Of a DNA stretch of 64,000 bases, positions 18,014 to 41,898 are shown piece after piece; positions within the stretch are counted from its first letter, which is position 1; each line of letters begins with the position of its first letter. Source of the stretch: Spirochaetia bacterium (GTDB lineage Bacteria; Spirochaetota; Spirochaetia; SZUA-6; Bin103); assembly GCA_965208575.1 (NCBI GenBank), contig CBDBOV010000006.1:1248001-1312000 (forward strand), read 5' to 3'. Position numbers and translations under genes: made by a program. The notes under the pieces were generated by a model that did no database searches, had not been told where the DNA came from, and saw only the letters and a program-made list of their open reading frames with translations.

Positions 18014-18651
18014 AGTTCGACTCCCTCGGCTTCCTGCTCGGCGCTGCACGCCAGCCACACGTCCACGGCGCGCCCGATGCGCGGCTTTCCGATGCGATGC
18101 GCAAAAGCGCGCAGGCGGTCGCGGTCGACGACGTCGGTCTGCTGGAACCGCATCTCGGTCATCCGGCGCCGGTCCCACTCGCCCGGGTGCAGGTGGAACA
18201 GGTCGAGCAGCGCCTTCTCGGCGGTCGCCACCAGCGCGTCGCTGCCGGCGACCGACACGCCGTGGTAGCCGAAGAACATGCTCCTCTTGATGGCCGTGTA
18301 GCGGAACATGCCGAACGTATTTTCGAAATGAGCGGGACCGCGGGTGGTCACGCTGGTGTAGACCGGCACCGCCTCGGGGATCAGGCCGTAGAAACCGAGC
18401 GCCCAGGGGCCGCTGAGATAGGACGGAGAGCAGAGGGCGTTGGCCAGCGCCGCCGGCGGCACCGGCACGCGGCGGTAGCGGTCGGCCAGGGCATACATGC
18501 CGCGGCGCAGCGGGATCAGCTTGCCCGCCCGGCTCCAGCGGTAGAGCTGGTTCACCACGTCGCGCCGCGGTTCGCCGCACAGTTGCACGACCGTCGCCAA
18601 GTCGAACCAGGGCGTCGCACCCAGCAGGTCTGCCACTTCATCAAGGCGCAT
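18010..18651 (-). CDS. AbiEi-family antitoxin (type IV TA)
   Basis: LRRGMY, PSYLS..WALGFYGLIPE, TSVT, EKALLDL. Confidence 0.88.
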   Translation of the reverse strand: MRLDEVADLLGATPWFDLATVVQLCGEPRRDVVNQLYRWSRAGKLIPLRRGMYALADRYRRVPVPPAALANALCSPSYLSGPWALGFYGLIPEAVPVYTSVTTRGPAHFENTFGMFRYTAIKRSMFFGYHGVSVAGSDALVATAEKALLDLFHLHPGEWDRRRMTEMRFQQTDVVDRDRLRAFAHRIGKPRIGRAVDVWLACSAEQEAEGVEL

Positions 18652-21202: not shown

Positions 21203-21222
21203 GTCCCCAACCTCAAGGTTGC

Positions 21223-21249
21223 GGGACGGCGGCGTGGCACCGCCGTCCC
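21223..21249 (-). terminator. Intercistronic hairpin after SBP
   Basis: GGGACGGCGG-7nt-CCGCCGTCCC perfect 10-bp stem; no U tract. Confidence 0.55.
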
Positions 21250-21262
21250 ACGGGTGAAATCC

Positions 21263-23056
21263 CTAGTAGCCCATTTCCTTTTTCAGCGCGCTGTCGAGCC
21301 AAAGCCGCGACCAGATGATACCGCCATAGTTCATCCCGCCGAGGGTGACCTCGCCGTTGAACCCGACAACCCACGGCTGAGCCGCCTGGTAGAGCGGGCC
21401 CTTCGGACCCCACGTCTGCACGTGCTGCTCTACCCAATACATGCTTCCCTTGATCGACTGTTCCTTCAGTTCCTCGATGGTGGTAGCCGCTCTCGCAGCC
21501 GCCACGATCGCGTTATAGGCAGGATCGTCAAACTGTCCGCGGTTCCATTGATGTCCTACCTCAAAGGTCGACAGGGCATCTACAGGCGGATAAGGAGTGC
21601 CCGCAATCGATTGTACCAGGCCACCAAAGCTCAGGTCCTTGATGCGGGCGACATGGGTAGCTCCTTGCACCGGCGTCAACGTGACATCGACACCAATCTT
21701 GGACCAGGAATTCTTGACCAGCTCTGCCCACTCCGGAGTGCTCGTCCAGTGGTCCAGGTTGGTCCTGATTCTGATCCCGTCGGCGCCCCGCGGATAGCCG
21801 GCTTCATCGAGCAGTTCCTCTGCCCGTTCCGGATTGTACGCGTACTCTTCCTTGAGCTCATCCGGCCACTCGTCGTATGGGGTCACGTACCCCACCCAGC
21901 CATCGCCGAGATAAGCTTGCGGCTTCCAAAAACTCGCGCCACCGAAAAAGGTATTGTGGAATGTCTCATTGTCCAGCGCCAACTGCATCGCGATACGCAC
22001 CCTGATGTCGTCGAATGGCGGTGCCGTCATGTTGAAGGCAAAACAATAATTGGACCTGAAGTACCACGGATACAAAACGATATCCGGATTGGTCTCGGCA
22101 AGGTTTTGCGCGGTCTCCAATACGCGTATGTTCGAGCCCCTCGCGCCGTGCCCGATGAAATCGATCTTGCCGGTTCTCAGTGCCGACAGGCGGGTGGTCT
22201 CTTCCGGCATGACCAGGGCTTCTACCCGGTCCATGTAGGGCAACCGGTTTTCCGGAAATTTCTCGTCGAATCCCCAGTAATTCGGGTTCCTTTCCCAGGT
22301 GATGGAACTGCCATCGACCCAATCGGTCAGCATGAAGGGGCCAGTACCGACCACATCCCGCCAATCGTTCACATCGCCCTTCTCCATGATCACCTCGGGG
22401 GGCAGGATGTAGGCAAGCGCGTCGTCGATGATTACCCGGAAGGCGGCCAGAGACGGTGTCTTCAGCTTGAACACGACGGTGTAGTCGTCGACCGCGGTTA
22501 CGGATTCCGCCGGAACCTGCGGAAGCTGCAAAGTGTAGCCGGGATAGTCGGTGAAGCCGCTGCCCAGGCCCATCAGGCGATGATAGTTGTACTCGATATC
22601 CTTGGCGGTCAGCTCGCGTCCGTTGAGCGGCGCCTTGTCGTGCCAATGCACGCCTTTGCGGATGTGGAAGACGTAGGTTAGCTGGTCCGGTGTCTCCCAG
22701 CTTTCGGCGAGAGCACCGGTATAGGCGACGTCGGCGACCAGCTCGGTACCGTAGTCGTACACGCTCCTGTCTATGCCCCAGTTTCCCTGGGAGAGCTTTT
22801 CATTGACGCCGCTGAGCAGGAATCCGGCGTGGTGACGTGCTACCGAGGGATCGGTTCCGTCCGGTTGACCGTTGTAGCCTGGAAAGAACGTTCCGCCGTA
22901 TTGCGGCGCCAGGATTTCCTTGCCGGTGGTGGGGTCGGTCACGTATGTCTTGGCGGCTGCCGGCGCCTCTTCCGAGGCAGCGGCCCATAGGCCGGTTGCG
23001 GCCAGGACGAGGACCAACGCAACCGCGAGGGTGGTCGTGAGTTTTCCTACCTTCAT
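21263..23056 (-). CDS. ABC transporter substrate-binding protein, family 5, cassette 1
   Basis: AAGGAG RBS; signal peptide MKVGKL...ATGLWAAASEE; LAESWE, RKGVHWH, GTGPF, RNPNYW. Confidence 0.93.
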   Translation of the reverse strand: MKVGKLTTTLAVALVLVLAATGLWAAASEEAPAAAKTYVTDPTTGKEILAPQYGGTFFPGYNGQPDGTDPSVARHHAGFLLSGVNEKLSQGNWGIDRSVYDYGTELVADVAYTGALAESWETPDQLTYVFHIRKGVHWHDKAPLNGRELTAKDIEYNYHRLMGLGSGFTDYPGYTLQLPQVPAESVTAVDDYTVVFKLKTPSLAAFRVIIDDALAYILPPEVIMEKGDVNDWRDVVGTGPFMLTDWVDGSSITWERNPNYWGFDEKFPENRLPYMDRVEALVMPEETTRLSALRTGKIDFIGHGARGSNIRVLETAQNLAETNPDIVLYPWYFRSNYCFAFNMTAPPFDDIRVRIAMQLALDNETFHNTFFGGASFWKPQAYLGDGWVGYVTPYDEWPDELKEEYAYNPERAEELLDEAGYPRGADGIRIRTNLDHWTSTPEWAELVKNSWSKIGVDVTLTPVQGATHVARIKDLSFGGLVQSIAGTPYPPVDALSTFEVGHQWNRGQFDDPAYNAIVAAARAATTIEELKEQSIKGSMYWVEQHVQTWGPKGPLYQAAQPWVVGFNGEVTLGGMNYGGIIWSRLWLDSALKKEMGY

Positions 23057-23078
23057 CAGGTATCTCCTTGTGTCGATG

Positions 23079-23246
23079 TGTCGATTTTCCGAGAGTATTG
23101 CAGTGCGGGTGGTCGCTCCCTGGCTACTCCCTCGCCGGCAACGCCGGCGGCCAGACGTAGTCAAATGGATTACAGCGCGCGGCGTGTGACTCAGCGGGGT
23201 TCACCCGCGCTCACGCCGCGCGCGGGTAGGGTTCTTTGAGTGTCAT
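23079..23246 (-). ncRNA. Candidate structured cis-regulatory RNA leader, copy 1
   Basis: Conserved with 31871-32038, with compensatory stems and two pseudoknot-type pairings (see findings). Confidence 0.7.
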
Positions 23247-23446
23247 CAAGCACCTCCAACGTTCGGTACGGTGACGGTGAATGGCGGCGACGGCGCGCGC
23301 GGGGGAGTGATCAGCCGGAGTGCTTGGTCGTTCTCGGTTCGACAAGGTTGACGGGTGGGCACCGGCTGCGTCACCGCCAACCGGTCACTGCGCTCACTGT
23401 CGCCATTGCGCATCATGACCATCCGTTCGATCCTTGAACCCTCCCG

Positions 23447-23475
23447 AGTCTCACAGGCTCGCCGGACCATGTCAA
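23447..23475 (-). promoter_or_regulatory. Sigma70-like promoter
   Basis: TTGACA-17 bp-GAGACT with a TG extension. Confidence 0.45.
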
Positions 23476-23558
23476 GCGCGCCGGCCGTCCGGTCTCGCCG
23501 GCCGGCGACTGTTCCGCCGTTACCCAGGCAGGCGGCGACGGCGCCGCGCGGGCAAGGG

Positions 23559-24710
23559 CTACTTGTAGGGGTCGGCGGCGTCGCGGAGGCCGTCGCCGAG
23601 GAAGTTGAAGGCGAGCACCGCGGCTACCACGAACAGGCCGGGGATCAGCAGCCACGGGTGCAGCAGCACGGCGTGCACGTTCTGGGCGTCCTTCAGCAGG
23701 GTGCCCCAGCTCACCACCGGCGGGCGCAGGCCCAGGCCCAGGAAGCTGAGCGCGGTTTCGCCCAGGATCATGTAGGGCACCGCCAGGGTCAGGCTCACGA
23801 TCAGGTAGCTCAGGAACGACGGCAGGAGGTGCAGGGCGACGATCTTGCCCTCGCCCCTGCCCGCCACCCGCGCCGCGGTTACGAAGTCCTGCTGGCGCAA
23901 CTCCAGCAGCTTGCCGCGCACCACCCGCGCCAGCCCCGCCCAGCCGAACATCGACAGGATGATGGTGATCGCGAAGTAGGTCTTCAGGGTGCCCCAGTGG
24001 GTCGGCAGGGCGGCGCTCAGCGCCATCCAGAGGGGGATGGTGGGCAGCGAGATCAGGATCTCGATGCCGCGCTGTATGATCATGTCGGGCTTGCCGCCGT
24101 AGTAGCCGGAAATGCCGCCCATGGTGCAGCCGAGCACGAAGCTCAGGAACACGCCCACCAGGCCGATCGACAGCGAGATGCGCGACGCGTAGACGGTGCG
24201 CGAGTACAGGTCGCGGCCGAGTTTGTCGGTGCCGAACAGGTAGAACGCACCGTCCTCGACCCCGGCCAGGCGCAGGTCCGCCTCCCAGATGCCCCACAGC
24301 TTGTAGGGGTCGCCGTGCACGAAGAAGCGGACGTAGTGGCGCGTCTCGGGGTCTTCCTTGTACACGCGGCGGAACGCCTTGCGGTCCACCACCTTCTGCA
24401 CGTCGTACACGAACGGGCGCAGCCCCCAGCCGTTCTGGTCGCCGAAGCGGATCTTCTGCGGCCGCATGTACACGAACTCCGCGTCGTGCTTGAGGATGTC
24501 GTGGGTGGCGAAGAACTCGCTGAAGAGGGCGAACAGGTAGAACACCGCCAGCACCGCCCCGCCGGCGATGGCCAGCCGGTGGCGCGTGAACTTGCGCCAC
24601 ATGAGCTGCCACTGCGAGGCGACGAAATAGCGGTCGTCCTCGGCGGCACGCGAGACCGGTCCGGCGGTGCGCGGCGCCTGACCCGCGCCGGGTGCGGCGA
24701 TGTCGCTCAT
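23559..24710 (-). CDS. ABC transporter permease (long DppC-like), cassette 2
   Basis: ASQWQLMWRKF, FGTDKLGRD, GETALSFLGLG, DAADPY. Confidence 0.93.
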   Translation of the reverse strand: MSDIAAPGAGQAPRTAGPVSRAAEDDRYFVASQWQLMWRKFTRHRLAIAGGAVLAVFYLFALFSEFFATHDILKHDAEFVYMRPQKIRFGDQNGWGLRPFVYDVQKVVDRKAFRRVYKEDPETRHYVRFFVHGDPYKLWGIWEADLRLAGVEDGAFYLFGTDKLGRDLYSRTVYASRISLSIGLVGVFLSFVLGCTMGGISGYYGGKPDMIIQRGIEILISLPTIPLWMALSAALPTHWGTLKTYFAITIILSMFGWAGLARVVRGKLLELRQQDFVTAARVAGRGEGKIVALHLLPSFLSYLIVSLTLAVPYMILGETALSFLGLGLRPPVVSWGTLLKDAQNVHAVLLHPWLLIPGLFVVAAVLAFNFLGDGLRDAADPYK

Positions 24711-24711
24711 G

Positions 24712-25707
24712 TCAGCCCGCCATCGCCTCGTAGCGGATGCGCGGATCGATCAGCACCAGCAGCATGTCGGAGATGAACGTGCCGATTACCACCATGAAGG
24801 TCAGCAGCATGGTGATGCTGCCGGCCAGGTACATGTCCTGCGCCAACAGCGCCCGGAACAGCAGCGGCCCGGTGGTCTCCAGCCCCAGCACGATCGCCGT
24901 AATCGTCTCTCCCGAAACGATGCCGGCCAGCGCCCAGCCCACCGTGCTGACGATCGGGTTGATCGACAGCCGCACCGGGTACTTGTACAGCAGCGTATGC
25001 TCGTCCACCCCCTTGGCGCGCGCCGTGATCACGTACTGCCGCGCCAGCTCGTCGAGCAGCGAACCGCGCATCACGCGCACCAGGTAGCCGGTGCCGGCGG
25101 TGCCGATCACCAGCACCGGAATCGGCATGTGCTTGAGCAGGTCGAGCACCCGCGCCCAGCTCCACGGCGCGTCGACGAACTCCGGCGAGAAAAGCCCGCC
25201 GATGCTCCAGCCGAACCAGCGGTTGAACAGCAGCATGAAGATCAGCGCGAGCAGGAAGTTGGGCGTCGCCAGGCCCACGAATCCCATGAAGGTGAAGGAG
25301 AAGTCGGCGACCGAGTACTGGTGGGTGGCGGAGTAGATGCCGATCGGGATCGCGATGACGTAGGCGAACAGCAGCGACGACAGCGACAGCAGCACCGTGA
25401 ACGGTAGCCGGTCGGCGATCAGCGTGCCCACCTTCTCCTTGAGGTTGAACGACCAGCCCAGGTTGCCGCGCGAAATGCGCCAGATCCACACCGCGTACTG
25501 CACGTGCACCGGCTTGTCCAGGCCGTACAGCTTGCCCATCGCCGCCAGCTCCGCCTCGTCGACGTCGCGCCCGAGCGCCTGCTGGTTGGCGCGGTACACG
25601 GTCAGGTAGTCGCCCGGCGGAAGCTGGATGATCAGGAACGAGATCATCGACACCAGCACCAGGACCAGGGCCATGTACAGCACGCGCCGGATGACGTAGT
25701 TAACCAT
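24712..25707 (-). CDS. ABC transporter permease (DppB-like), cassette 2
   Basis: IIQLPPGDY, YVITARAKG, QDMYLAG, DPRIR. Confidence 0.93.
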   Translation of the reverse strand: MVNYVIRRVLYMALVLVLVSMISFLIIQLPPGDYLTVYRANQQALGRDVDEAELAAMGKLYGLDKPVHVQYAVWIWRISRGNLGWSFNLKEKVGTLIADRLPFTVLLSLSSLLFAYVIAIPIGIYSATHQYSVADFSFTFMGFVGLATPNFLLALIFMLLFNRWFGWSIGGLFSPEFVDAPWSWARVLDLLKHMPIPVLVIGTAGTGYLVRVMRGSLLDELARQYVITARAKGVDEHTLLYKYPVRLSINPIVSTVGWALAGIVSGETITAIVLGLETTGPLLFRALLAQDMYLAGSITMLLTFMVVIGTFISDMLLVLIDPRIRYEAMAG

Positions 25708-25720
25708 TTGCTGCGCTTGG

Positions 25721-25762
25721 AAAAAACGGCGGGCACCGGCTGCTGCGGCCGGCGCCCGCCGT
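25721..25762 (-). terminator. Intrinsic terminator/attenuator between SBP and permease
   Basis: ACGGCGGGCGCCGGC...GCCGGTGCCCGCCGT stem followed by a T run on the minus strand. Confidence 0.75.
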
Positions 25763-25791
25763 CATCTATCGTACGCTAACGCTCCGTGGAG

Positions 25792-27747
25792 CTACTGCTT
25801 GACCCACCACTGGTAGACGCGCCCGCGGAAGTTGCCCGCGGTGGCGTTGGTCCACGCCAGCTCGTCGTACAGGTTCATGATGTTGCGGCGGAAGATCATC
25901 GGGCGCGGCGGCAGGCCGACGGTACCGATGGCAAACACGTTCTCGGCGAACATCATCATGAATTCCTTGCCCATTGCCTGCCACTTGGCGTCGTCGAGCT
26001 CGTTGCGCATCGCGTGGCCGAGATCGAGCATCTCCTTGGCCACGCCGACCGGCTCCTCGCCCGACTCGCCGTTGGACTGGTACCAGTTGCGCCACATCGG
26101 CGCCCAGTGACCGATGGTCAGGAACCAGCCGCTCGCCGGGCTGTCGGTGCGGTACTTCAACTGGCTCGGTTCCATGATCCAGGTAGTCAGGTCGTAGTCG
26201 GCGTTGTTGGTGCGCAGCGAGAACAGGCTGCGCTCGATGATGCTGAACTTCAGCTCGATGCCCACCTCGCGCCAGTAGTTGGTGACCAGCTCGGAGATGG
26301 TGACCAGGTCGGCCAGGCCGGTGCCGGTGATCACCTCCAGGGTCAGGCGGTTGCCGTCGGAACTGAGCCGGTAGCCGTCGCCGTCGCGCTCGGTCAGGCC
26401 GATCTCGTCGAGCAGCCGGTTGGCCTCGTCCACGTCGTAGCGGATCGCCTCCTGCTCGGCGGCCTGCACCTCTTCATCGTAGAACGGCTCGTCGCCGAGG
26501 GCGAAGCCGAGCAGCGGCGTGGCCAGCCCCTGGAACACGATGTCGTTGATCTCGTCGCGGTCGATGGCGTGCGACAGCGCCTGCCGGAACCGCTTGTCGC
26601 GGTACAGCTCGCGCCGCACCGGGTCCTTGTGGTTCAGGTTCAGGTAGTAGGAGCCGGCGCCGGCCCAGGTGTTGGGGCCGATGATCACGTTGTAGTTGTA
26701 GCGCTCGGCGTTCTGCTCCAGCAGCGGCGCCTCGTCCATGCCGAAGCCCTCGACCAGGAAGTCGAACTCGCCGGCGATGCCGCGCGCCTTGACCAGCTCC
26801 GACTCGACCACCAGCACGCCGTAGATGTTGTCCAGGTAGGGGAGCTGGTTGCCGGCCTCGTCCACCTTCCAGTAGTAGGGATTGCGGTCCCAGACGGTGC
26901 GGTCCATGGTCACCGAGGTGGGTACCCAGGCGTACAGGTAGGGCGGGCCGGGATAGTGGATGTAGGGCCGCGTCTTTTCGCGCGTCTGGTTGAACAGTTG
27001 CCACCACTCCTCGAGCCCCTCTTCCTTGGCCTTCTTGTCGGCGTCCTCGTTGTAGTCGATGTGCAGCTCCTTGAAGTAGTGCGCCGGGAAGTAGTGGTTC
27101 ATGTAGCCATTGGCGGCCGTGAACATGAACAGTTGCGCGGGCGACGGCCCGGCGAACCCGAACTGCACGGTGCTGTCGTCGATCTGCGTGAAGGTCATGC
27201 GGGAGCCGTGCGACATCCAGGCGCCAGGGGTGAGCGGCGTCAGCTTGTCGTTGAACTGCACGTCCTCGTAGTAGAAGCGCAGGTCCTCGGCGGTGAACGG
27301 CGATCCGTCCGACCACTTGATGCCCTCGCGCAGGTGCACGGTGAGCTGCGACTTGTCGTCGTTCCAGTCCCAGGCGCGCGCCACGTTGGGCACCACGTTC
27401 AGGGAGTCCTCGGGGTCGAGCTCCATCAACGGTTCGATGTTGACGTGCGCGATCATGTACCAGTTGCCGGTGCTGTGCTTGATCGCCGTGATCGCACCGC
27501 CGTACTCGCCGATCTCATCCTTGACCTTTACCACCAGCGGCTCCGGCGGCAGCCGTTCCTCCACCGGCGGCAGGTCTCCGGACGCCACCAGTTGCGCCAG
27601 CGCGGGCGCCTCGTTGAAGCTGCCGGAAGCGGCCATCGCCCCCGCCGAGCTCGCCTCTGACGAGCCCTCGTCCTCGCCGCCGGCCCAGACCATCGCGGCC
27701 GAACCGAGCAGCACCAGCGAAACCATTACGCCGGTCATCGCTTTCAT
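25792..27747 (-). CDS. ABC transporter substrate-binding protein, family 5, cassette 2
   Basis: Signal peptide; EAPALAQLVASGDLPPVEERLP, KWSDG.PFTAED, RNPYYWKVD..GNQLPYLD. Confidence 0.93.
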   Translation of the reverse strand: MKAMTGVMVSLVLLGSAAMVWAGGEDEGSSEASSAGAMAASGSFNEAPALAQLVASGDLPPVEERLPPEPLVVKVKDEIGEYGGAITAIKHSTGNWYMIAHVNIEPLMELDPEDSLNVVPNVARAWDWNDDKSQLTVHLREGIKWSDGSPFTAEDLRFYYEDVQFNDKLTPLTPGAWMSHGSRMTFTQIDDSTVQFGFAGPSPAQLFMFTAANGYMNHYFPAHYFKELHIDYNEDADKKAKEEGLEEWWQLFNQTREKTRPYIHYPGPPYLYAWVPTSVTMDRTVWDRNPYYWKVDEAGNQLPYLDNIYGVLVVESELVKARGIAGEFDFLVEGFGMDEAPLLEQNAERYNYNVIIGPNTWAGAGSYYLNLNHKDPVRRELYRDKRFRQALSHAIDRDEINDIVFQGLATPLLGFALGDEPFYDEEVQAAEQEAIRYDVDEANRLLDEIGLTERDGDGYRLSSDGNRLTLEVITGTGLADLVTISELVTNYWREVGIELKFSIIERSLFSLRTNNADYDLTTWIMEPSQLKYRTDSPASGWFLTIGHWAPMWRNWYQSNGESGEEPVGVAKEMLDLGHAMRNELDDAKWQAMGKEFMMMFAENVFAIGTVGLPPRPMIFRRNIMNLYDELAWTNATAGNFRGRVYQWWVKQ

Positions 27748-27776
27748 ACCTACCTCCCTTGGAAGTGTGATGGTCG

Positions 27777-27805
27777 TTTATAGGCCACCCGGCCCCACCC
27801 GTCAA
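27777..27805 (-). promoter_or_regulatory. Sigma70-like promoter
   Basis: TTGACG-17 bp-TATAAA, upstream of a GGAGG RBS. Confidence 0.65.
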
Positions 27806-28014
27806 GGAGCACCGGCTCGCCCATCGGCGTCCGCTGATGCGAATCGGCACGTCGTCACGTGCCGCGCGGGCGGTTGGGGCGCTGCAGCGATGGGGGAGGG
27901 ACAAAGGCATTGCAGCGGGGTAGATCAAGGGTTAGCATGTACCTATGGCTGAGAGGTTGCAACCAGCCCTCGTCGCCTTGATTCCCGCGTTGATCGGCTC
28001 CGGGATGGCGTTGT

Positions 28015-28980
28015 TTATCGCCGTGAAGGGGTGGCGACGTTCGACTTGGCGGCATCGGCGCCGAGACGACCCACGCCGCCCCTGAGCGTGGTTGCGCCAC
28101 GCAACCTTGGATCGAGCAGGTCGCGCACCGCGTCACCCAACATGTTGAAACTGTACACCACGATGGTCAGGCACAGGCCGGGCCACAGCGCCAACCACGG
28201 CGCCTGCTCCATGTACTTGCGCCCCTCCCGGCTGAGCATGCCTCCCCAGTCGGGGATGGTGGCCGGCAGACCGAATCCCAGGAAGCCCAGTGCGGCCAAC
28301 GCCATGATCACGCCGCCTATACTGGTGCTGAATGAAATGATTATGACCGGTGTGATATTGGGCACGACATGGCGTAGGAGCGATCTCCATCGCGACGAGC
28401 CAACCGCCTCGGCGACGTCGAAATAGGCGTTCTCCTTGATAGCGATGACAGCGCCTCTGATTACTCTCGCGCCGCCTATGCCGCCCGATATCCCCATGAC
28501 CAGGATGATCTGCAGCAGTCCCTCCCCCACTATGGCTATGAGGGTCAACAGCAGCAGCAATCCCGGAAACGCCATCCAGGCATCGACGAATCTCTGCACG
28601 CCCAGGTCCAGTTTGCCACCGACAAATCCCGAAACCCCACCGATCACGGTGCTGATGAATACGCTGATGGTGGTCACCGATACGCCGACCAGTACGGACA
28701 CGCGAGCTCCGAAGATAAGGCGGCTCAGGAGGTCTCGTCCGGCCTGGTCGGTACCAAGCAGATAACGGGCCGATGGGCCCTGCAGGCGGTCTACCAGGTG
28801 CAGTTCGGCATATGGATAGGGCGACAATGCATCTCCAAAGACAGCCACCAGGATTACCATGAGTATGACGACCCCGCTGGCCGCGCCCAACGGCTTCTCG
28901 GTGACCAGCCTGATAACGAATCTGGCCGCCGCGCTGCGTCTCCTGGGCTCGTTCACTGCGCCGACGGGCATCCGAGACAT
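28015..28980 (-). CDS. ABC transporter permease (DppC-like), cassette 3
   Basis: TGATG coupling with the upstream gene; LGTDQAGRD; close paralog of 19329-20249. Confidence 0.92.
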   Translation of the reverse strand: MSRMPVGAVNEPRRRSAAARFVIRLVTEKPLGAASGVVILMVILVAVFGDALSPYPYAELHLVDRLQGPSARYLLGTDQAGRDLLSRLIFGARVSVLVGVSVTTISVFISTVIGGVSGFVGGKLDLGVQRFVDAWMAFPGLLLLLTLIAIVGEGLLQIILVMGISGGIGGARVIRGAVIAIKENAYFDVAEAVGSSRWRSLLRHVVPNITPVIIISFSTSIGGVIMALAALGFLGFGLPATIPDWGGMLSREGRKYMEQAPWLALWPGLCLTIVVYSFNMLGDAVRDLLDPRLRGATTLRGGVGRLGADAAKSNVATPSRR

Positions 28981-29945
28981 CACTGGTAGCGAATCCTGGG
29001 ATCCAGGTAGGGGTACAGCATGTCGATGAGTAGAGAGCTGAACAACACGACGCTGGCCAGGAGCAGGTTGATTGCGGAAACGACCGGGTAGTCTCTCTGG
29101 TTGAGCGCAGCCACGAACAGGCGACCTATGCCCGGCAAAACGAATATCTCTTCCAAGATAACCGAGCCCCCGACCAGGAGAGGGAGCTGCAGGCCGATCA
29201 GGGTAAGGACTGGGATGAATGCATTCTTGATGGCGTGTCTGACAATGATCACCCTCTCCCTGAGCCCCTTGGACCAGGCCGTCCGGATATAGTCCTGCCT
29301 GAGCACCTCCAGCATCATGGTGCGCATCAGCCGCATGGTGGCGGCCGACATGGCCGTGCCCAGGATGAGGGACGGAATGAGGAACATCCCGAGATTCCCC
29401 AGCGGGTCTTCCGCAAACGGAATCAACTCTACCGATGGCGACCAGCCCCACCAGATTGCCGGGTAGAGCATGACCATGACGCCAAGCCAGAAGTTGGGCG
29501 TTGCCAAGCCGATGACGGCGACGGTGCGGCCTGCGTAGTCGATCGCCGTATCCTGGCGAATCGCCGAGTAGAGACCGACTGGCAGCGCTATGACGAGCCC
29601 TATTACGATTGCCATAACGCCAAGCTCGACGGTTACCGGCAATCTGCTTATGATCCTCTCCTCTATTGACCAGTGTCCCGTAAGTGACTCACCGAACGTG
29701 CCGCGCAGGAGAATATCTCCCATCCAGCGTCCATATTGCACGTGCACGGGCACGTCCAATCCCAGCATGCGCTCAAGCGCTTCACGGTCTACCACGCCAC
29801 CGGCGGAAGACCATGCTTCCATCTCCGCCACCATTGCGTCTATTACGTCGCCGGGGAGGAAGCGGACCGCGAGAAAGACTATGACGGTCAATATCCACAA
29901 GGTGGGGATGGTCAGCAACAAGCGTCTGATGAGATAGGCTCTCAT
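28980..29945 (-). CDS. ABC transporter permease (DppB-like), cassette 3
   Basis: MRAYLIRRLL, DYIRTAWSKGL; close paralog of 20246-21202. Confidence 0.93.
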   Translation of the reverse strand: MRAYLIRRLLLTIPTLWILTVIVFLAVRFLPGDVIDAMVAEMEAWSSAGGVVDREALERMLGLDVPVHVQYGRWMGDILLRGTFGESLTGHWSIEERIISRLPVTVELGVMAIVIGLVIALPVGLYSAIRQDTAIDYAGRTVAVIGLATPNFWLGVMVMLYPAIWWGWSPSVELIPFAEDPLGNLGMFLIPSLILGTAMSAATMRLMRTMMLEVLRQDYIRTAWSKGLRERVIIVRHAIKNAFIPVLTLIGLQLPLLVGGSVILEEIFVLPGIGRLFVAALNQRDYPVVSAINLLLASVVLFSSLLIDMLYPYLDPRIRYQ

Positions 29946-29989
29946 GGGACAAATGCCCTTGTCATTGCTTAGCCTGAGCTATTTAGATG

Positions 29990-30032
29990 GGGAGCCGGGA
30001 AGCGCCCGCAGGCGAATCGCCTCCCGGCTCCC
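29990..30032 (-). terminator. Intercistronic hairpin after SBP
   Basis: GGGAGCCGGGA ... TCCCGGCTCCC 11-bp perfect stem. Confidence 0.55.
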
Positions 30033-30042
30033 TTATTCATCA

Positions 30043-31857
30043 CTAGTTTCCCATCTCTTCCTTCATCTCCTGGTCGATCCAGAGGCGCGCCAGGTGGGTC
30101 ATGCGTTCGCCCCATCCCATGCCTGCTTCACCGAAATAACCCTGAACCCACGGTTGGTTCACGAAATGATTGGGGATGTTGGATTTCACCAAGCCGCAGT
30201 GCTCCCTTACGCAGAGCTCATCGGACTGTCTCTGTATCCTCTTGAACTCCTCGATGTCGGTAGTCTCCGAGGCGGCAACATAAAGGGCGTCCATGCGCGG
30301 ATCATTCATCTTGTTGGCGCTGCGGCCGCTGACCAGTGTGGTTACCGCTCCAAACGTGTATCCGACCAGGCCGGGGCCGCCGAAGTAGCCGTAATACGAA
30401 GTAAATAAGCCGTACTCAAGCGTTTCCGCCTTCAAGGCAGCTCCCATTTCAGCGGTACCGAACACCTCAAGCTCGCCTTTTACGCCAATGGCGTCGAGGT
30501 AGCCGATGACCAGTTCCGGATAGGTCTCATCCCACCGGTCGAAATGGCCCAGCTTGATGGTAAATCTATAACCGTCGTCGCCGCGCGGATAGCCGGCAGC
30601 ATCAAGCAACGCCTCTGCCTCTTCCGGGTGATACTCATACTCATGCTTGACGTCGTCCGGCCACTCTGCATATGGCCAGCTATACTGTGGCGTGAATTGG
30701 CCAACCAACCCGTACGGTGTTGGATCGCCCATACCCTTGTTGTAGGTAGCGTTGATGGTCTCGCGGTCCACTGCCATCTGCAGTGCCTTGCGCACATTGA
30801 CGTCCTGCATGAACGGCACAGTCCAATTGAAATAGAACGTGCCGCTAGGCCGGCTATAGACCGGCCAGAACTCCATTTCAGGGTTGGTCTGCTGGAGGCT
30901 CGCTACGTCGTCGATAGAGGTTACATAGGCGTCGCCGACGTTACTCAGCATATCAATCTTGCCGGTGCGCAGTGCCGCCAGACGTGTCGATGTGTCCGGC
31001 ATGAGCAGCGACCGGTACTCGTCAATATAGGGCAACCGGTTGCCGAATTTCTCGTCAACGCCCCAGTAGTCAGGATTCTTCACCCAGGTTGCCGAGCTGC
31101 CCTCCACGAAATCAGTCAGTCGCAAGGGCCCGGTGCCGACCACGTTGTTCCAGTCCTTGGCGTCTCCGTATTTCTCGATTACTTCGCGAGGTAACACGAT
31201 AAAGTAGTTGTTGGTCATTTTCCCGAGCACATCGAGCTGAGGCTTTGCCAGCTTGATCTCAATCGTCCATTGGTCGGTGGCCGTTACCGAGACGATTTCT
31301 GCACCCTGAGTTACCCCACCCTTGCCGGTGCTCGGCCCGTCTTCGGCGAAGTCCCCCAGGCCCAGAAAGCGGTGATAGTTCCATTCGACGTCATGAGCAT
31401 CGAACTGCCGACCGTTGACCGGCTCCTTGTCGTCCCAGTTGACGCCCTGGCGAATGTTGAAGATGAACGTGGTGTCGTCGGGCATCGACCAGCTTTCGGC
31501 CAGAGACCCTGTGCTCATCTCCGGGGTCACCACTTGGTACAATTCACCGCGCCATATATCTCTGGATAGTCCCCAGTCGGCGAACGCGAGCCGTTCATTG
31601 ACACCCCCGATGAGGTGTTGCGCCCAGCCAGTATTGAACCAGGGGTCGATACCCGGAGGATAGACCTTGGCGCCCCACGTGAGGATCCCGCCATACTCCG
31701 GCGCGGTCCACGTCCTTCCGGTCGCGGTGTCGAACACCGTTTCCCTCTCCGTAGCCGCCGCCGGCTCCTCTTCCGCGGCGGCGGCCCAGAGGCCGGTCGC
31801 CATCAGCACCAGGATCAACGCAACCGCAAAGGTCCTGGTAACTTGCATGAAATTCAT
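30043..31857 (-). CDS. ABC transporter substrate-binding protein, family 5, cassette 3
   Basis: Signal peptide ...ATGLWAAAAEEE; LAESWS, GTGP, KNPDYW; paralog of 21263-23056. Confidence 0.93.
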   Translation of the reverse strand: MNFMQVTRTFAVALILVLMATGLWAAAAEEEPAAATERETVFDTATGRTWTAPEYGGILTWGAKVYPPGIDPWFNTGWAQHLIGGVNERLAFADWGLSRDIWRGELYQVVTPEMSTGSLAESWSMPDDTTFIFNIRQGVNWDDKEPVNGRQFDAHDVEWNYHRFLGLGDFAEDGPSTGKGGVTQGAEIVSVTATDQWTIEIKLAKPQLDVLGKMTNNYFIVLPREVIEKYGDAKDWNNVVGTGPLRLTDFVEGSSATWVKNPDYWGVDEKFGNRLPYIDEYRSLLMPDTSTRLAALRTGKIDMLSNVGDAYVTSIDDVASLQQTNPEMEFWPVYSRPSGTFYFNWTVPFMQDVNVRKALQMAVDRETINATYNKGMGDPTPYGLVGQFTPQYSWPYAEWPDDVKHEYEYHPEEAEALLDAAGYPRGDDGYRFTIKLGHFDRWDETYPELVIGYLDAIGVKGELEVFGTAEMGAALKAETLEYGLFTSYYGYFGGPGLVGYTFGAVTTLVSGRSANKMNDPRMDALYVAASETTDIEEFKRIQRQSDELCVREHCGLVKSNIPNHFVNQPWVQGYFGEAGMGWGERMTHLARLWIDQEMKEEMGN

Positions 31858-31870
31858 ACGTTACTCCGCA

Positions 31871-32038
31871 TGTCGATTGTCGAGAGTATTGCGTAGCGGC
31901 CTGCCGCTCCCTGGCTACCCTCAAGCCCGCAACGCGGGCCGCCAGACTGAGTCAAAATTCACCGGCAGCGCGCGGCGTGTGACTCACCGGGCTCGCCCGG
32001 GCTCACGCCGTGCGCGGATGCGGTTCCTTGAGTATCAT
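31871..32038 (-). ncRNA. Candidate structured cis-regulatory RNA leader, copy 2
   Basis: Conserved with 23079-23246 (see findings). Confidence 0.7.
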
Positions 32039-32446
32039 TTTGCACCCCCTATTTTGATTTACTTGGCCACGGGGTGCCCGGTCATATGGCTGACAGAAGC
32101 TGTGTGTCTCGGGTCGGAAGGAGGGGTCGCCTACGGGGCGATCAGCCGGAGCGGTTAGTTGTTTCTCGGTCGAAAGTGCCGCGGAGGGAAGTGGGGGGGG
32201 GCGACGAGGCATGAATCTGTTCATGATTCTATCGCGGGCTTGTGATCGTGTCACGGACGTGGAGCGCGGGTAGCGCGGGTCAGCGCCAGCCCACCGACCG
32301 AGCCCCAGCGAGCCCCACTGCGGCATCGCCCGTGCTCGCGCAGCGAGAGGGCAACTGTCTCGGAAGCGCTTTGTCCACATTTTGCGCGCCGCGGCTACAA
32401 GCGCGCAAGTGACCCTTCGCACCAGGCCGGGCCTGCCGGACGCGAG

Positions 32447-33522
32447 TCACATACCCCACACGTCGACTGCCACCGCGCTGCCGCCGCGCGCCGGGTTGTG
32501 CCGCAGATGGAGCACCTTCTCCTCCCAGCTCCGCCGCTCCCGGCGGTCGATCACGACCAGGTGCCCCGCTTCGGCCGCGCTGCGGTCCACGTAGCGAGCC
32601 GTCTGCGCGACGCCCTCCGCGATGACGCCATCGAGCCCGTCGCGCTCCCGCACCACCTTGCACTCCACCACGAACTCCTGCACCCGGTCGGCCATCGGCC
32701 ACACGATCAGCAGGTCCACCCTCCCGCTGCCCAGGGCGTATTCGCGCTCGATGCGCCCGCCGCCGTTCACCACGCGCTGCAAGTACGCCTGCAGGAGCAA
32801 CTGCGCGCCTGGGTCCACACCGCCTCCAGCGCCTCAGGCGCGAATGCCTGGCCGGTCTCTTCCGCGTGCTGGGTCAGCAGCGCCAGCGTCTGCGCCCGTG
32901 AGAAGTCTCCCAGCCGCAGCGACGCCGCGGCGATGTTGAATGGGCTGCCGGCGGCGCCCATGCGGTAGTCGCGCAGGTCGCGCATGCCGCACAGGACCAC
33001 GCTGTGCGGGAAGCGTTCCGGACGCCCGGGGTAGCCGGCGCGGATCTGCTGGAGCACCGACAGGAGCGAATCGCCCACCAGCGTGTCGATCTCGTCGATC
33101 AGCAGCACCAGCGGGCGCGCCGACGCCTGCGCCCAGCGCTCCAGAGCTACGCTCAACGCCAGGTCCGGACCGAACTCAGCGAGGATCTCCGCCCAAACGC
33201 CTCGCAGGAATCGGTCGCCCGACGCCGCATCTGCCGCATTCGCCAGCGTGGCGAGGACCACGCGCATCGCCCGCTGCACGTCGTCGCGGGCGGTGCGGGC
33301 GGTCTCGACCGTGACGTAAACGCAACCGTATCCTCGCTCGTTCAACACTTCGGCCAGCGCCAACAGCGCCGACGTCTTGCCAGTCTGCCGCGGCGCGTGC
33401 AGCACGAAGTACTGCTCGTCCCGTACCAGCCCGAGCACTTCGTCCAGGTCGATGCGTTCAAGCGATGGGATACAATAGTGCTTGTCGGGCTTGACGGGAC
33501 CGGCGGTGGTGAACGAACGCAT
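32447..33522 (-). pseudogene. AAA-like ATPase with C-terminal PD-(D/E)XK-like domain, internally deleted and frameshifted
   Basis: MRSFTTAGP, APRQTGKT, LLIDEID. At ~32810 it jumps in another frame to QLLLQAYLQRVVNGGGRIEREYALGSGRVDL...VECK. Confidence 0.8.
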
Positions 33523-35403: not shown

Positions 35404-36204
35404 TCACCCAAGCAAGCGCAGCAGGTCGTCTCGGTTGACCAGTTCGATATCCTCCTGCCGTTCGAGGAACGGACGCAGGTCGGTCACGGCGCGGCCCCAA
35501 TCCATGGCGTCCATTCGCTCGGCCAGCGACCTCCGCCATTTGTGCGGCGTCATTTCCGGGCCGCGCCAGTCGGTTTGCCGCAGCGCCGCGTTGAGCAGTA
35601 CGAGGTTGGGCGGCGGCCACTCCGGGTCGCTCAGATACCAGGCCAGGTCGTACACGTCACGCCCCTTGGTATACGGACGCTGCAGCACGGCATGCAGCTT
35701 GCCGGCGAGCAGGGACGCGCGGTCATGGTGAAACAGCCGCAGCGTTTCGTGGCGGCGCACCAGGCTGGTGGTCATGCGCGCGCCGGACGGCGGCCGGGTG
35801 TCCACCTCGATCTTGATGGCGAGCACTTCCGCCCGGTGCGGCGACAGGCCGATTTCGTACAGCAGGCCCGGGAACCGCACCCAGGCGCCGTGCACGGTGC
35901 GGGTGTCCTGGACGCGCAGCTCGATGCGGTAGTGCTCCGCGGCCAGCTCGGCGCGGATCGCCTGCAGCCAGCCGCGCAGCCGGTATCCGCCCCGGTCGCC
36001 TTCCAGGGCGAAGTCGAGGTCTTCGGAATAGCGCGGCAGGCTGAACAGAAAGCGCAGGCACGTTCCGCCGTGAAACGCCAGCGAGGTCATCGCGCCGGCC
36101 CGCTGCAGCGCTCCGAGAATGCGCGCCTGCAGATATTCGCGGGCGACATTCCGGGCTTGCAGCGGACCGCGCCCCTGCACGAGCTGCCGCAGGTGATCCT
36201 TCAC
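35404..36204 (-). CDS. AbiEii-family nucleotidyltransferase toxin
   Basis: REYLQ, FHGGTCLR, RYSEDLDF, GKLHA, KGRDVYD. Confidence 0.9.
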   Translation of the reverse strand: MKDHLRQLVQGRGPLQARNVAREYLQARILGALQRAGAMTSLAFHGGTCLRFLFSLPRYSEDLDFALEGDRGGYRLRGWLQAIRAELAAEHYRIELRVQDTRTVHGAWVRFPGLLYEIGLSPHRAEVLAIKIEVDTRPPSGARMTTSLVRRHETLRLFHHDRASLLAGKLHAVLQRPYTKGRDVYDLAWYLSDPEWPPPNLVLLNAALRQTDWRGPEMTPHKWRRSLAERMDAMDWGRAVTDLRPFLERQEDIELVNRDDLLRLLG

Positions 36205-36836
36205 AGGGCCTCGTAGCCCGGCTCGTCACCGGCGATCCAGCGAATACCGCCGGCGGCGCGGAGCAGTTTCGGCGTCGCACAGATCCCCGCAAGCGCCTCC
36301 AGCCGCTGCAGGTGCAACCTGTCGAAGTCAAGACGCAACTCGCGCAGGTACGCCGCGTCGTCTCCCCCGGGGTGCAGATGGATCAGGTCAAGCAGCGCCT
36401 TCTCCGGCTCCGCAACGAATGCGCTTTGGCCGCCGCCCAACTCGACCTGGCGATAGCCGAACAGCAGGCCGGGCTTCAGGTGACGGAAGGAGAACCTGCC
36501 GATCGCGGTATCGCGCAGGTGCGGGCGCCCCGGCGTGACGCTGGTCACTTCCGCCACGTACTCGGGAATCGCCTGCACGAACGCCAACGCCGCCAGCCCG
36601 CTGACGTAGGACCCCCGCGCCAGCCGGTTCGCCACCAGGAACGGGTGCGGAGTCCGTCTCTCCCATGGCGGCGCCAGGGTATACAGTCCGCGTCGCAGTT
36701 GCCGAATGCGCCCGCTGCGCGTCCAGCGCGAGAGCTGGCGCCGCAGACTGGCAGGATCGACGGCCCCCGCCAGCAGCAGCCCGGTCTCGAACACCGGCTC
36801 ATCCGCCACGATCTCCACCAACTCCTCAAATCGCAT
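36201..36836 (-). CDS. AbiEi-family antitoxin
   Basis: QLRRGLY, SYVS...IPE, TSVT, EPEKALLDL. Confidence 0.88.
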   Translation of the reverse strand: MRFEELVEIVADEPVFETGLLLAGAVDPASLRRQLSRWTRSGRIRQLRRGLYTLAPPWERRTPHPFLVANRLARGSYVSGLAALAFVQAIPEYVAEVTSVTPGRPHLRDTAIGRFSFRHLKPGLLFGYRQVELGGGQSAFVAEPEKALLDLIHLHPGGDDAAYLRELRLDFDRLHLQRLEALAGICATPKLLRAAGGIRWIAGDEPGYEAL

Positions 36837-39867: not shown

Positions 39868-41898
39868 ATGAGACGGAGTGTAGTCTCCTCGCTGCTGGCC
39901 GCGTTCGCGGCCCTGCTGCTGTCGGGGGCCACCGCGTGGGCCGGCGCAACGTCCGAGCCGGAGGAACAGGCGTCAGGCACCATGGCCGCCACGGGCACGT
40001 ACAACGAAGCCCCCATGCTGGCCAAGCTGGTCGCCGCCGGCGAACTCCCACCGGTCGATGACCGGCTGCCCGAAGTACCCAAGGTGCACCACATGATCGA
40101 AAGCGTCGGCCGGTATGGCGGCGAGTTGCGCGCCTTTGCCGTGACCGACAACATCTGGGAGAACGACCTGCAGGGGCAGTTCGGATCCTCCCTGTTCCGC
40201 CGGCCGATAGACAACCCGTTCGGCGTAGAGGGCGACCTGGCGCAGGGCTACGCGATCAACGACGACCGCACCGCCATGACCATCTCTCTGCGCAAGGGAT
40301 TGAAGTGGTCTGACGGCACCCCCTACACGTCGGAGGACATCCGCTTCATGCTGGAGGATTACCGCTGGCATCCCGACCTGCGCGGCGGCTCGACCTACTA
40401 CGGCGTCGACTCGGTGGAGGTAATCGACGACTACACGATCCGCCTGCACAGCCCGGACGGGTTGGGGGACATCCCGTTGATCCTGACCGCCTGGCGCGGC
40501 GGATTCCGCATGGTCTTCACGCCGTCGGAGTACATGAAACAGTTCCACATCGACTTCAATTCCGGCGCTCAGAAGACTGCCGCCGAAAACGGCTTCGACA
40601 GTTGGACCGACTACTTTCAGAATCGCATCAACGACGCCCCCTTGCGCAACATCGACAAGCCGCAGGTCGAGCCGTGGGAGCTGACCCAGATCACCGACAC
40701 GATCAAGGTGATGGAGCGCAATCCATACTTCTGGAGGGTCGATCCCGACGGCAACCAGCTCCCCTACATCGACCGGGTCGTGATCCAGATCGTCAATCCC
40801 GAAGTCTATCAACTGAAGGTGAGCGGCGGCGATGCTTCAATCGCGTACTATCGCACCAGTCTGGACAACCTGCCCCTGTACATGGCCGGAGCCGACGCCG
40901 GCGACTACCGGACAATCCTGTACCGCAGCCACTCTACCGCATGGATGAAGTACTTCACGGTCGGCAGATTCAACAAGGATCCGGTGATCCGCGAGTTGTT
41001 CTCCGACATCGACTTCCGCCATGCACTCTCGGTGGCGCTCAACCGCGACGAGATCAACAACGTGATCTACCAGGGACTGGGCGTGCCGGGCGTGGTGGCG
41101 CCGCTGTCGAGCGTGTCGTTCTACCAGGAAGGATGGCGCACCGATTGGGCGCAGTACGATCCCGACCTCGCCAATCAACTGCTCGACAAGGTGGGACTGG
41201 ACAAGCGCGACGCGGAGGGCTTCCGGATGCTGCCCGACGGGCGCCCCTTCAACTTCGTCATCGACTACGGCGCCGACCGCTGGACCGCGGAACTGGAACT
41301 GTACGTGGAGCAGTACCGGGACGTCGGCATTCGTACCGTGATACGCCTCGGCGATGCGCGTTCGTACAGTGATCGGCGCTGGCAGGGCGAGGGCATGGGC
41401 TGGGTTCACAACAACCCGATTGTTCCGCAGGCGGGCGAGCGCCAGTTGATCGAGGACTTCTTTACCTGGGACCAGCAGTTCGATGCCTGGAAGCTGTGGA
41501 TCCAGTCGCACGCCAATGCGGTTCGTTCGACGCTTCCCGAGGGCGCCATTCTGCCCGCCGGGTGGCAACTGCTGCCGCCCGTAACGGGCTGGGAGTACGT
41601 CGGCAGCCGCGGCCGCGCCGCGGAGGAGCCGCCGCTGCACTGGAAGGAGTGGCGGGTGCTCAAGGACCGCTGGTTGAACATGGAGCACGGCTCGGACGAG
41701 TTCATCGCAGCGGCTATCGAGATCTTCAACTACGTGGTGAAGGACTTCGGCATCATCGGGGCAGTTGGCGAGGTTCCGTCGGTGATTGTTGCCAAGAACA
41801 ATCTCGGCAACGTGGTTACCGAGGACATCTGGCCGGGAACGGGGGTGGCCGATCTGCTGATGCAGTCCTGGATGGACCAGCTCTACTGGAAGCAGTAG
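39868..41898 (+). CDS. ABC transporter substrate-binding protein, family 5, cassette 4
   Basis: Signal peptide; EAPMLAKLVAAGELPPVDDRLP, KWSDG, RNPYFW.VD..GNQLPYID. Confidence 0.93.
   Translation: MRRSVVSSLLAAFAALLLSGATAWAGATSEPEEQASGTMAATGTYNEAPMLAKLVAAGELPPVDDRLPEVPKVHHMIESVGRYGGELRAFAVTDNIWENDLQGQFGSSLFRRPIDNPFGVEGDLAQGYAINDDRTAMTISLRKGLKWSDGTPYTSEDIRFMLEDYRWHPDLRGGSTYYGVDSVEVIDDYTIRLHSPDGLGDIPLILTAWRGGFRMVFTPSEYMKQFHIDFNSGAQKTAAENGFDSWTDYFQNRINDAPLRNIDKPQVEPWELTQITDTIKVMERNPYFWRVDPDGNQLPYIDRVVIQIVNPEVYQLKVSGGDASIAYYRTSLDNLPLYMAGADAGDYRTILYRSHSTAWMKYFTVGRFNKDPVIRELFSDIDFRHALSVALNRDEINNVIYQGLGVPGVVAPLSSVSFYQEGWRTDWAQYDPDLANQLLDKVGLDKRDAEGFRMLPDGRPFNFVIDYGADRWTAELELYVEQYRDVGIRTVIRLGDARSYSDRRWQGEGMGWVHNNPIVPQAGERQLIEDFFTWDQQFDAWKLWIQSHANAVRSTLPEGAILPAGWQLLPPVTGWEYVGSRGRAAEEPPLHWKEWRVLKDRWLNMEHGSDEFIAAAIEIFNYVVKDFGIIGAVGEVPSVIVAKNNLGNVVTEDIWPGTGVADLLMQSWMDQLYWKQ

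Follow-up and report, generated by a model that had tools for sequence, protein, structure and literature searches.

A structured RNA leader lies directly 5′ of a gene for a family-5 solute-binding protein (SBP; 30043 to 31857) at positions 31871 to 32038, minus strand, of a 64,000-nucleotide (nt) stretch of DNA from a Spirochaetia bacterium (assembly GCA_965208575.1, contig CBDBOV010000006.1, positions 1,248,001 to 1,312,000; the whole stretch is called the window below). The leader recurs about 60 times in the genome, nearly always in front of an SBP paralogue, its stems and two pseudoknots are conserved among 101 copies, and the codons of a short upstream open reading frame (uORF) at its 5′ end vary mainly at third positions. 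The explanation that we favor, and to which we give about even chances, is a genus-specific cis-regulatory leader in which translation of the uORF is coupled to a tandem-pseudoknot fold, so that ∼60 transporter cassettes come under one common signal.

Distribution among solute-binding protein genes

Searching the 6.5-Mb genome with nhmmer and a two-sequence profile recovered 61 leader copies, and a 48-sequence profile recovered 63 at E < 1e-3. The open reading frame (ORF) of an SBP paralogue follows 59 of the 61, mostly within 25 nt and in every case on the same strand as the leader. These SBPs are mostly 40 to 47% identical to the SBP encoded at 30043 to 31857 (31 to 69% overall). As 199 ORFs of ≥300 amino acids (aa) in this genome match the family-5 SBP profile and 59 of them carry the leader, the initial annotation, a reading of the window's sequence that preceded this analysis, was right that the motif marks a subset of SBP cassettes. 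It had also listed the SBP genes at 49206, 27747, and 39868 as lacking the motif; they do lack it, because the covariance model (R1; 171 positions and 35 pairs) finds in the window just the copies at 23089 to 23261 (copy 1) and 31871 to 32038.

A FastTree phylogeny was constructed from 179 SBPs, 20 of the 199 ORFs having been left out for their length (<450 or >800 aa). Leader presence changes state 28 times on this tree, compared with 42 to 51 times in five shuffles of the labels, and 55 of the 56 leader-bearing SBPs on the tree fall within one clade of 121 leaves. The leader is therefore enriched in one subfamily and patchy within it; with 28 changes of state, monophyly of the leader-bearing SBPs was not found.

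Judged from the genomes searched, the leader is genus-specific. Of 10 other genomes in this genus, 7 have R1 matches; under stricter filters, none was found in the 13 sister-genus genomes or in the 37 genomes from seven other families of the order that were searched. When more candidates were scored, five sister genomes yielded 85, 43, 33, 35, and 5 copies, which brings the total for six genomes to roughly 260. Copy number tracks the size of the SBP expansion (homologues counted at E values of up to 1e-30): a 4.9-Mb sister genome (G005) has 85 copies and at least 150 homologues, another (G007) has 5 copies and 33 homologues, and three leader-free genomes (G009, G010, and G011), the first two from the same genus, have 5, 4, and 1 homologues, respectively. 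No Rfam 15 family matched the whole window at the gathering threshold, and none matched positions 31800 to 32200 at E values of up to 10. Resemblance of the SBPs to proteins that bind peptides, nickel, or opines is no more than distant (E 4e-21 for the best solved chain), and no NCBIfam model came near its cut-off for them.

Conservation of the fold

The leader core is ∼170 nt long, within a stretch read on the minus strand from 32053 to 31855. The element exceeds positions 31871 to 32038 on both sides, with the Shine-Dalgarno (SD) sequence of the uORF at 32049 to 32045 and a hairpin around the SBP start codon at 31872 to 31855. From 5′ to 3′, the core comprises stem P1 (11 or 12 G-C-rich pairs), enclosing hairpin P1a and the bulge UGAGUCA; a variable linker; UGACUC, which pairs with this bulge as pseudoknot 1 (PK1); stem P2, enclosing hairpin P2a (GUU loop) and the bulge GAGAGUA; hairpin P3; and GCAAUACUCUC, containing UACUCUC, the partner of the second bulge in pseudoknot 2 (PK2). 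The two modules resemble each other: in both, an outer stem surrounds an inner hairpin and a bulge with GAGU, and this bulge pairs with a downstream stretch that contains ACUC. A short A-rich linker separates the leader from the ribosome-binding site of the SBP gene.

The initial annotation had described this locus as the second copy of a conserved structured leader, and all stems, bulges, and pseudoknots that it named were found where it had placed them, including the bulge UGAGUCA (31980 to 31986) with its complement UGACUCA (31948 to 31954) and the hairpin AGCGGC-AG-GCCGCU (31908 to 31895), all on the minus strand. Its statement that the conserved block ends immediately before GGAG needs correction in one respect: block and GGAG are both present, but the GGAG (31867 to 31864) follows 3 nt later. 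The same annotation had staked the element on leader identity being higher than identity at synonymous sites. Over the core, identity between the window's two copies is 74.9% (131 of 175 positions). The SBPs that they precede share 43% of their residues, and within those shared residues the four-fold sites agree at 47.3% (70 of 148; ∼30% is expected by chance), so that the leader exceeds synonymous sites by a wide margin.

Pairing is retained across copies. Among 48 MAFFT-aligned copies from this genome, 91.3% of alignment cells are paired, compared with 31.9 to 51.3% when the partners are slid, and 15 pairs have changed on both sides, compared with 6.4 ± 1.8 in shuffles (0 of 500). For 101 model-aligned copies from eight genomes, the values are 93.8% paired cells versus 31.8 to 49.7%, and 19 pairs with compensatory changes versus 8.5 ± 1.9 (0 of 500). 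Among these 101 copies, paired cells amount to 97.6% in P1, 85.8% in P1a (three of five pairs changed on both sides), 95.4% in P2, 94.5% in P2a (with many C-G to U-G changes), and 90.6% in P3.

The 101-copy alignment was fitted to the nested stems, with the pseudoknots outside the model, and the proposed pairing of each bulge with a downstream stretch is nevertheless kept. PK1 is 93.4% paired, with compensatory changes in two of six pairs, and PK2 is 92.5% and 95.6% paired, with compensatory changes in four of seven, e.g., A-U to C-G in copies with GAGCG...ACGCUC; for both pseudoknots together, pairing is 92.5 to 95.6% and compensatory changes affect 6 of 13 pairs. G-U and U-G pairs are frequent (43, 37, and 29 copies at three pairs) and would be A-C mismatches on the other strand, from which we conclude that the RNA is read on the strand of the gene.

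Substitution events, counted on a tree, are distributed very unevenly over columns (variance/mean, 7.6): the mean per column is 4.9 in stems, 4.1 in pseudoknots, 13.2 in other unpaired positions, and 18.6 in the 5′ flank. The GUU loop of P2a and the GCAA before PK2 are near-invariant, with at most four events. Support for the pairing is good, not overwhelming, the number of independent compensatory events in the alignment being modest.

A short open reading frame in the 5′ segment

The initial annotation had noted a 5′ segment AUGA(C/U)ACUCAA in both window copies, and the pattern indeed matches twice in the window, compared with 0.03 matches expected. The segment is best read as the beginning of a uORF because it is led by an SD sequence, starts with ATG, GTG, or TTG, and varies at third codon positions. 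The conserved AUGAUACUCAAAGAACC is the uORF start and is preceded by GGAGG. An SD-like word lies within 15 nt upstream in 93 of the 101 copies, with a spacing of 5 to 6 nt in 83. The start codon is ATG in 74 copies, GTG in 10, and TTG in 5 (89 of 101); its first base is A in 78, G in 15, T in 5, and C in 3, and its second and third bases are fixed in at least 95. An intact uORF of 11 codons is present in 73 copies (stop codon TGA in 71 and TAA in 2), and in 40 of the 73 the encoded peptide is identical, MILKEPHARAA.

When events in the uORF were counted on a tree built from other columns, codons 3 to 6 had 6, 10, and 50 events at codon positions 1, 2, and 3 (50 of 66 at the third), and the start codon had 22, 6, and 5. 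The third-position changes are almost all synonymous (CUC/CUG, AAA/AAG, GAA/GAG, and CCN). The 6/10/50 pattern reads as the signature of a translated frame selected for its peptide. The 5′ strand of P1 consists of codons 8 to 11 plus the UGA stop; module 1 therefore could not be folded while a ribosome occupies the uORF. The uORF ends ∼145 nt upstream of the SBP start.

Promoter, alternative folds, and the start region

Neither of the roles that the initial annotation had suggested for the 5′ segment was upheld. It had been thought a possible promoter −10 region, a reading that falls because promoter-like sites lie well upstream: one site, with 10 of 12 matches, is predicted ∼190 nt upstream of this uORF (32254 to 32226), and TTGAC(A)-17-nAnnnT sites occur 100 to 200 nt upstream of many other copies. 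The proposal that the ACUC of the segment competes for the GAGU bulges finds no support in covariation. ACUC has become ACUG in 14 of 101 copies, none of the 12 itemized ACUG copies has a matching change in either GAGU bulge, and several further copies have ACGC.

The 130 to 200 nt between the promoter-like sites and the uORF contain further repeated modules common to subsets of copies, among them a GCCGG-UUUGU-GCCGGC hairpin just before the SD sequence (e.g., copies h4, h6, h7, h10, h11, h16, h17, and h32).

No intrinsic terminator is conserved after P1, one weak site being present only in the copy at 31871 to 32038; downstream of P1 the consensus is not rich in U, and no alternative antiterminator pairing was found. 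Among the copies compared, there was likewise no clear conserved alternative fold that sequesters the SBP SD sequence. Of 43 copies examined from this genome, 14 have a hairpin that includes the SBP AUG and has a stem of ≥5 bp (shuffled sequences gave 1.9 on average and 7 at most), with the compensatory variants CAUAGG...CCUAUG and UAUGG...CCAUG. With 14 of 43 copies bearing it, and copy 1 lacking it, this hairpin was rejected as a general part of the leader and is a subfamily feature.

An apparently exchangeable 5′ cassette

Orthologues 87% identical to the SBP at 30043 to 31857 are encoded without the leader in two sister genomes (loci L083 in G001 and L142 in G005, compared with window positions 31858 to 32260). 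The three orthologues, from three species, have three different upstream regions: the R1 leader, a second leader type, and a short promoter-proximal 5′ untranslated region. The second type has a GUCGCCCUCG...CGAGGG stem and a 3′ block, AGGGAGCGGCA...CUCUCGAA, that is common to it and the R1 leader, and in the genome of the window it is found at C6:943266-943529, C6:985212-985432, C4 near 1003579, C5 near 329627, and other sites. Nine further SBP genes, found by single-seed searches, have rarer leader types that share this 3′ block. These rarer leaders often contain an SD sequence followed by a minimal ORF (start-stop or three codons), and the loading of ribosomes within leaders seems to be widespread in this genome. 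As far as can be told from sequence comparison, the leader is apparently exchanged between genes as a 5′ cassette that includes the first codons of the gene.

Similarity links 96 of the 199 SBP upstream regions.

Proposed mechanism

In the explanation that we favor, transcription would probably start 100 to 200 nt upstream of the conserved core. A ribosome translating the uORF, or pausing on it, would melt P1 and thereby module 1 and PK1, and the fold of the leader would depend on ribosome traffic over the uORF. The conserved peptide x-L-K-E-P suggests that this traffic may be set by the nascent chain, e.g., by pausing, and termination at the UGA embedded in P1 could set it as well. Folding of module 1 and PK1 would then tune translation of the SBP, the lifetime of its mRNA, or both, whether upward or downward.

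The signal would be common to the ∼60 cassettes of this genome, and to up to 85 in a sister genome, rather than the substrate of each transporter; a global signal is the more likely because ∼60 divergent SBPs share the leader. The initial annotation had implied sensing of the ligand of each SBP. This is unlikely, given that the ∼60 SBPs, mostly 40 to 47% identical, share one leader and that 87%-identical orthologues do without it.

A more specific version, which we advance tentatively and think doubtful as a whole, is that the nascent peptide x-L-K-E-P and the tandem-pseudoknot RNA jointly read one global signal and thus coregulate 60 to 85 paralogous ATP-binding cassette (ABC) importer cassettes per genome. 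Candidate signals are an alarmone, a metabolite derived from peptides or amino acids, and the state of termination at the UGA of P1. If such a joint peptide-RNA sensor exists, it would represent a new sensor class and control one of the largest single-genome regulons of a structured cis-acting RNA; paralogues would have acquired it from one another by exchanging a 5′ leader cassette, perhaps including the first codons of the gene.

Several observations weigh against the favored explanation. The 11-codon uORF is not intact in 28 of the 101 copies: 12 have no canonical start codon, 5 stop after codon 6 (K-E-P), and others are frame-shifted by 2-nt deletions. These copies must be in decay unless the uORF can be dispensed with. 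The uORF frame of the copy studied here is open upstream, as part of a 139-codon ORF (32003 to 32422); this longer frame was taken as chance in DNA of 67% G+C because conservation starts only at the SD sequence. In nested partition functions without pseudoknots for 37 copies, occupancy of the uORF caused no consistent shift in exposure of the SBP SD sequence and AUG, the mean unpaired probability going from 0.46 to 0.43 for the SD sequence and from 0.37 to 0.41 for the AUG.

Kinship and recombination also bear on the conservation of the leader. The copies are kin, so that cell counts exceed the number of independent events, and such strong conservation leaves few compensatory changes. Over the first ∼150 nt of coding sequence (the signal peptide), mean pairwise identity remains at 0.70 to 0.82; it then drops to 0.40, and the first codons of the window gene differ from those of both sister orthologues. 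Because identity enters the coding region and orthologues differ upstream, recombination of the 5′ cassette contributes to the conservation; recombination among paralogues and purifying selection both shape the leader.

RNA libraries also fail to cover the leader. Contigs assembled from RNA libraries of four runs (two coded studies, sponge metagenome) were compared over 29900 to 32600, and none covers 31629 to 32600; the gap is uninformative about the leader because contigs of a ∼60-copy repeat are expected to break. The contigs cover parts of the SBP coding region (30040 to 31545) with 93 to 99% likeness, which, as DNA carry-over is possible, is no proof of transcription.

Alternative explanations

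An unlikely alternative is a riboswitch for a metabolite or alarmone, in which the tandem pseudoknots are one or more aptamers for a global signal (nitrogen or amino acid status) and the uORF and start-codon hairpin are the expression platform. The complex conserved fold with two similar modules and near-invariant unpaired nucleotides is what such an element would have, covariation included, if with limited variation and in copies all from one genus; its placement directly 5′ of transporter genes also fits, and a common ligand would explain one leader on many SBPs. It would be a new class, because Rfam contains no match. Confinement to part of one genus (7 of 10 genomes, as opposed to none among 13 from the sister genus and 37 from other families of the order) speaks against it, as do the 87%-identical orthologues that manage without the leader and the failure to find either a terminator or a clear conserved SD-sequestering alternative. 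A pure riboswitch, moreover, needs no selection on a uORF at the peptide level.

An explanation without any sensing, to which we assign a low probability, is a constitutive expression cassette in which a ribosome-loaded uORF and a compact pseudoknotted fold shield the 5′ part of the SBP message from nucleases or boost its translation. Ribosomes bound near the 5′ end can stabilize mRNA, and such a cassette would supply SBPs at the high level needed relative to the permeases. The apparent travel of the leader with the first codons of its gene fits this function, and the rarer leaders, with an SD sequence and a start-stop or three-codon ORF whose peptide cannot matter, keep a stabilizer or enhancer role alive. 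However, the third-position bias indicates selection on L-K-E-P, which simple ribosome loading does not need, and 140 of the 199 SBP genes lack this leader.

The tandem modules, with their invariant bulge and loop nucleotides, and the many regulon-like copies per genome could also suggest an operator for a trans-acting RNA-binding protein, with two bulged hairpins for a dimeric regulator of a posttranscriptional SBP regulon. We consider this quite improbable, since the conserved pseudoknot pairings already account for the bulges and no candidate protein was found: CsrA (PF02599) had 0 matches in this 95%-complete genome, and 3 of 14 control genomes matched. High copy number in a single genus, patchiness on the SBP tree (28 changes among 179 SBPs), and differing upstream regions of orthologues would all be expected of a nonfunctional dispersed repeat, or of a gene-conversion tract hitchhiking with duplicating SBP genes. 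We give this reading hardly any credence: 59 of 61 copies keep one orientation and a set spacing relative to the start codon, stems and pseudoknots are spared by substitutions, pairing is kept, and the uORF has codon periodicity, none of which is expected under neutrality.

Features of the locus and genomic context

Features of the leader and of the genes that it precedes are as follows.

Positions of leader features and associated genes in the window
Feature	Position	Strand	Remarks
SBP gene served by the leader	30043-31857	-	604 aa; Pfam SBP_bac_5, E 1.6e-58
Two permease genes after SBP gene 30043-31857	28980-29945; 28015-about 28980	-	
Promoter-like site GTGACA-17-TAGAAT	32226-32254	-	Predicted; 10/12 matches, 1 site vs 0.1 expected
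uORF SD sequence, GGGGG in this copy (GGAGG in most copies)	32045-32049	-	6 nt before AUG
5′ segment ATGATACTCAAGGAACC	32038-32022	-	Twin in copy 1 at 23246-23230
uORF, 11 codons and UGA, MILKEPHPRTA in this copy	32003-32038	-	Consensus MILKEPHARAA
P1, 5′ strand GCGCACGGCGUG	32004-32015	-	Partner 31968-31979; 12 bp, one A-C mismatch in this copy
P1a hairpin CCGGG-CGAG-CCCGG, within P1	31987-32000	-	Copy 1: GCGGG...CCCGC
Module 1 bulge UGAGUCA (PK1, 5′ strand)	31980-31986	-	
P1, 3′ strand CACGCCGCGCGC	31968-31979	-	
PK1, 3′ strand UGACUCA	31948-31954	-	Exact 7-bp complement of UGAGUCA bulge
Module 2, whole	31911-31945	-	P2, P2a, and PK2 bulge
P2, CUGGC with GCCAG	31945-31941 with 31915-31911	-	
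P2a inner hairpin GCCCGC-GUU-GCGGGC	31939-31925	-	
Module 2 bulge GAGGGUA (PK2, 5′ strand)	31922-31916	-	
P3 hairpin AGCGGC-AG-GCCGCU	31895-31908	-	
AAUACUCUC	31890-31882	-	
PK2, 3′ strand UACUCUC	31882-31888	-	
AAUCGACA	31878-31871	-	
Start-codon hairpin CAUGCG-GAGUAA-CGUAUG	31855-31872	-	SBP AUG in 3′ strand, most of SD in loop
SBP ribosome-binding GGAG	31867-31864	-	3 nt after AAUCGACA; SBP ATG at 31857
Leader copy 1, core	23089-23261	-	uORF 23246-23211; upstream of SBP gene 21263-23056
Permease genes after SBP gene 21263-23056	20246-21202; 19329-20249	-	

The window contains five SBP genes (21263 to 23056, 25792 to 27747, 30043 to 31857, 39868 to 41898, and 49206 to 51041). Positions 19329 to 31857 hold three consecutive SBP-permease-permease cassettes on the minus strand. 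No ABC ATPase family matched the ORFs scanned between or beside these cassettes; the ATPase may be shared and encoded elsewhere. Genes for AbiEii toxin-like nucleotidyltransferases are located at 35404 to 36836 and 17213 to 18580, one with an AbiEi-like partner (PF08843 and PF13338). The 537-aa product of a gene at 44212 to 45825 matches the VHL beta domain, which is of eukaryote type, twice (PF01847, E 8e-21); this gene is adjoined by a GH32 glycoside hydrolase gene (45854 to 47446).

Half or more of the words sampled from the window occur in each of 14 sequencing runs, of which four, from three coded studies, are labelled sponge metagenome. If our favored explanation is true, much of the nutrient-uptake capacity of a sponge-associated bacterium, extremely expanded to 199 family-5 SBP genes here and to at least 150 in the 4.9-Mb sister genome, is governed by one leader made of an RNA and a minipeptide and confined to its genus. 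For the ecology of sponge symbionts, this would point to coordinated control of the uptake of peptide-like dissolved organic matter. The leader would also show how a regulon can be built by the spread of a 5′ cassette among paralogues. With 170 nt and two pseudoknots, it is a compact candidate for a new ligand- or ribosome-sensing element, and its >100 natural variants already amount to a collection of mutants of a structured RNA that is coupled with a conserved uORF.

Comparison with known systems

Full-text literature searches, which covered main texts, listed no description of such an SBP leader. Dispersed intergenic repeats of the REP/BIME and MITE-like kinds resemble it in having tens of structured copies of 150 to 200 nt per genome. 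However, these elements are not known to have a fixed gene partner. Copies of such a repeat would be expected to be independent of any particular gene and to occur in either orientation; 59 of the 61 leader copies instead immediately precede an SBP paralogue in its own orientation. The leader keeps a constant spacing to the start codon of one gene family and contains a coding uORF.

The nearest described element is the odc1 motif (uORF-25-1) of alphaproteobacteria, described as a structured 5′ leader that has a highly conserved uORF of 11 aa and a ribosome-binding site within the fold, and for which its authors weigh both a riboswitch role and a peptide role (Brewer et al. 2021, PMC8632094). 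The SBP leader is like odc1 in kind, as a structured leader with a conserved 11-residue uORF. As described (PMC8632094), odc1 folds into a single extended hairpin rather than tandem pseudoknot modules and is unrelated in sequence, its uORF starts beside the main start codon whereas the uORF of the SBP leader ends ∼145 nt upstream, and it occurs once per genome with one gene family, compared with 5 to 85 copies per genome here.

Leader-peptide and arrest-peptide systems (trp/his-type attenuators; TnaC, PMC8429421; and the topAI uORF, PMC12121999) are likewise described as having a short SD-led ORF that overlaps a stem, as found here, so that the fold of the RNA is decided by where the ribosome stands. 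The SBP leader differs from attenuators in lacking a conserved terminator or U-tract after P1, an antiterminator pairing, and a run of regulatory codons; the consensus MILKEPHARAA contains no such run, and its repeated alanines are encoded by the stem itself. With arrest peptides it shares a conserved peptide sequence, and selection on the peptide is suggested here by the 6/10/50 distribution of events and by the 40 identical peptides among 73.

Translation of a uORF that remodels a structured 5′ untranslated region, and thereby the control of a downstream (transporter) gene, is described for the interplay of atypical B12 riboswitches and uORFs in Mycobacterium tuberculosis (PMC11260477), and a similar logic for a translation-aborting small ORF in Salmonella that opens a downstream ribosome-binding site (PMC8092293). 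Both systems are described with a known aptamer or signal and at a single locus, whereas the SBP leader serves dozens of paralogues. The leader shares its logic with known uORF systems, but not its sequence, fold, gene partner, or copy number.

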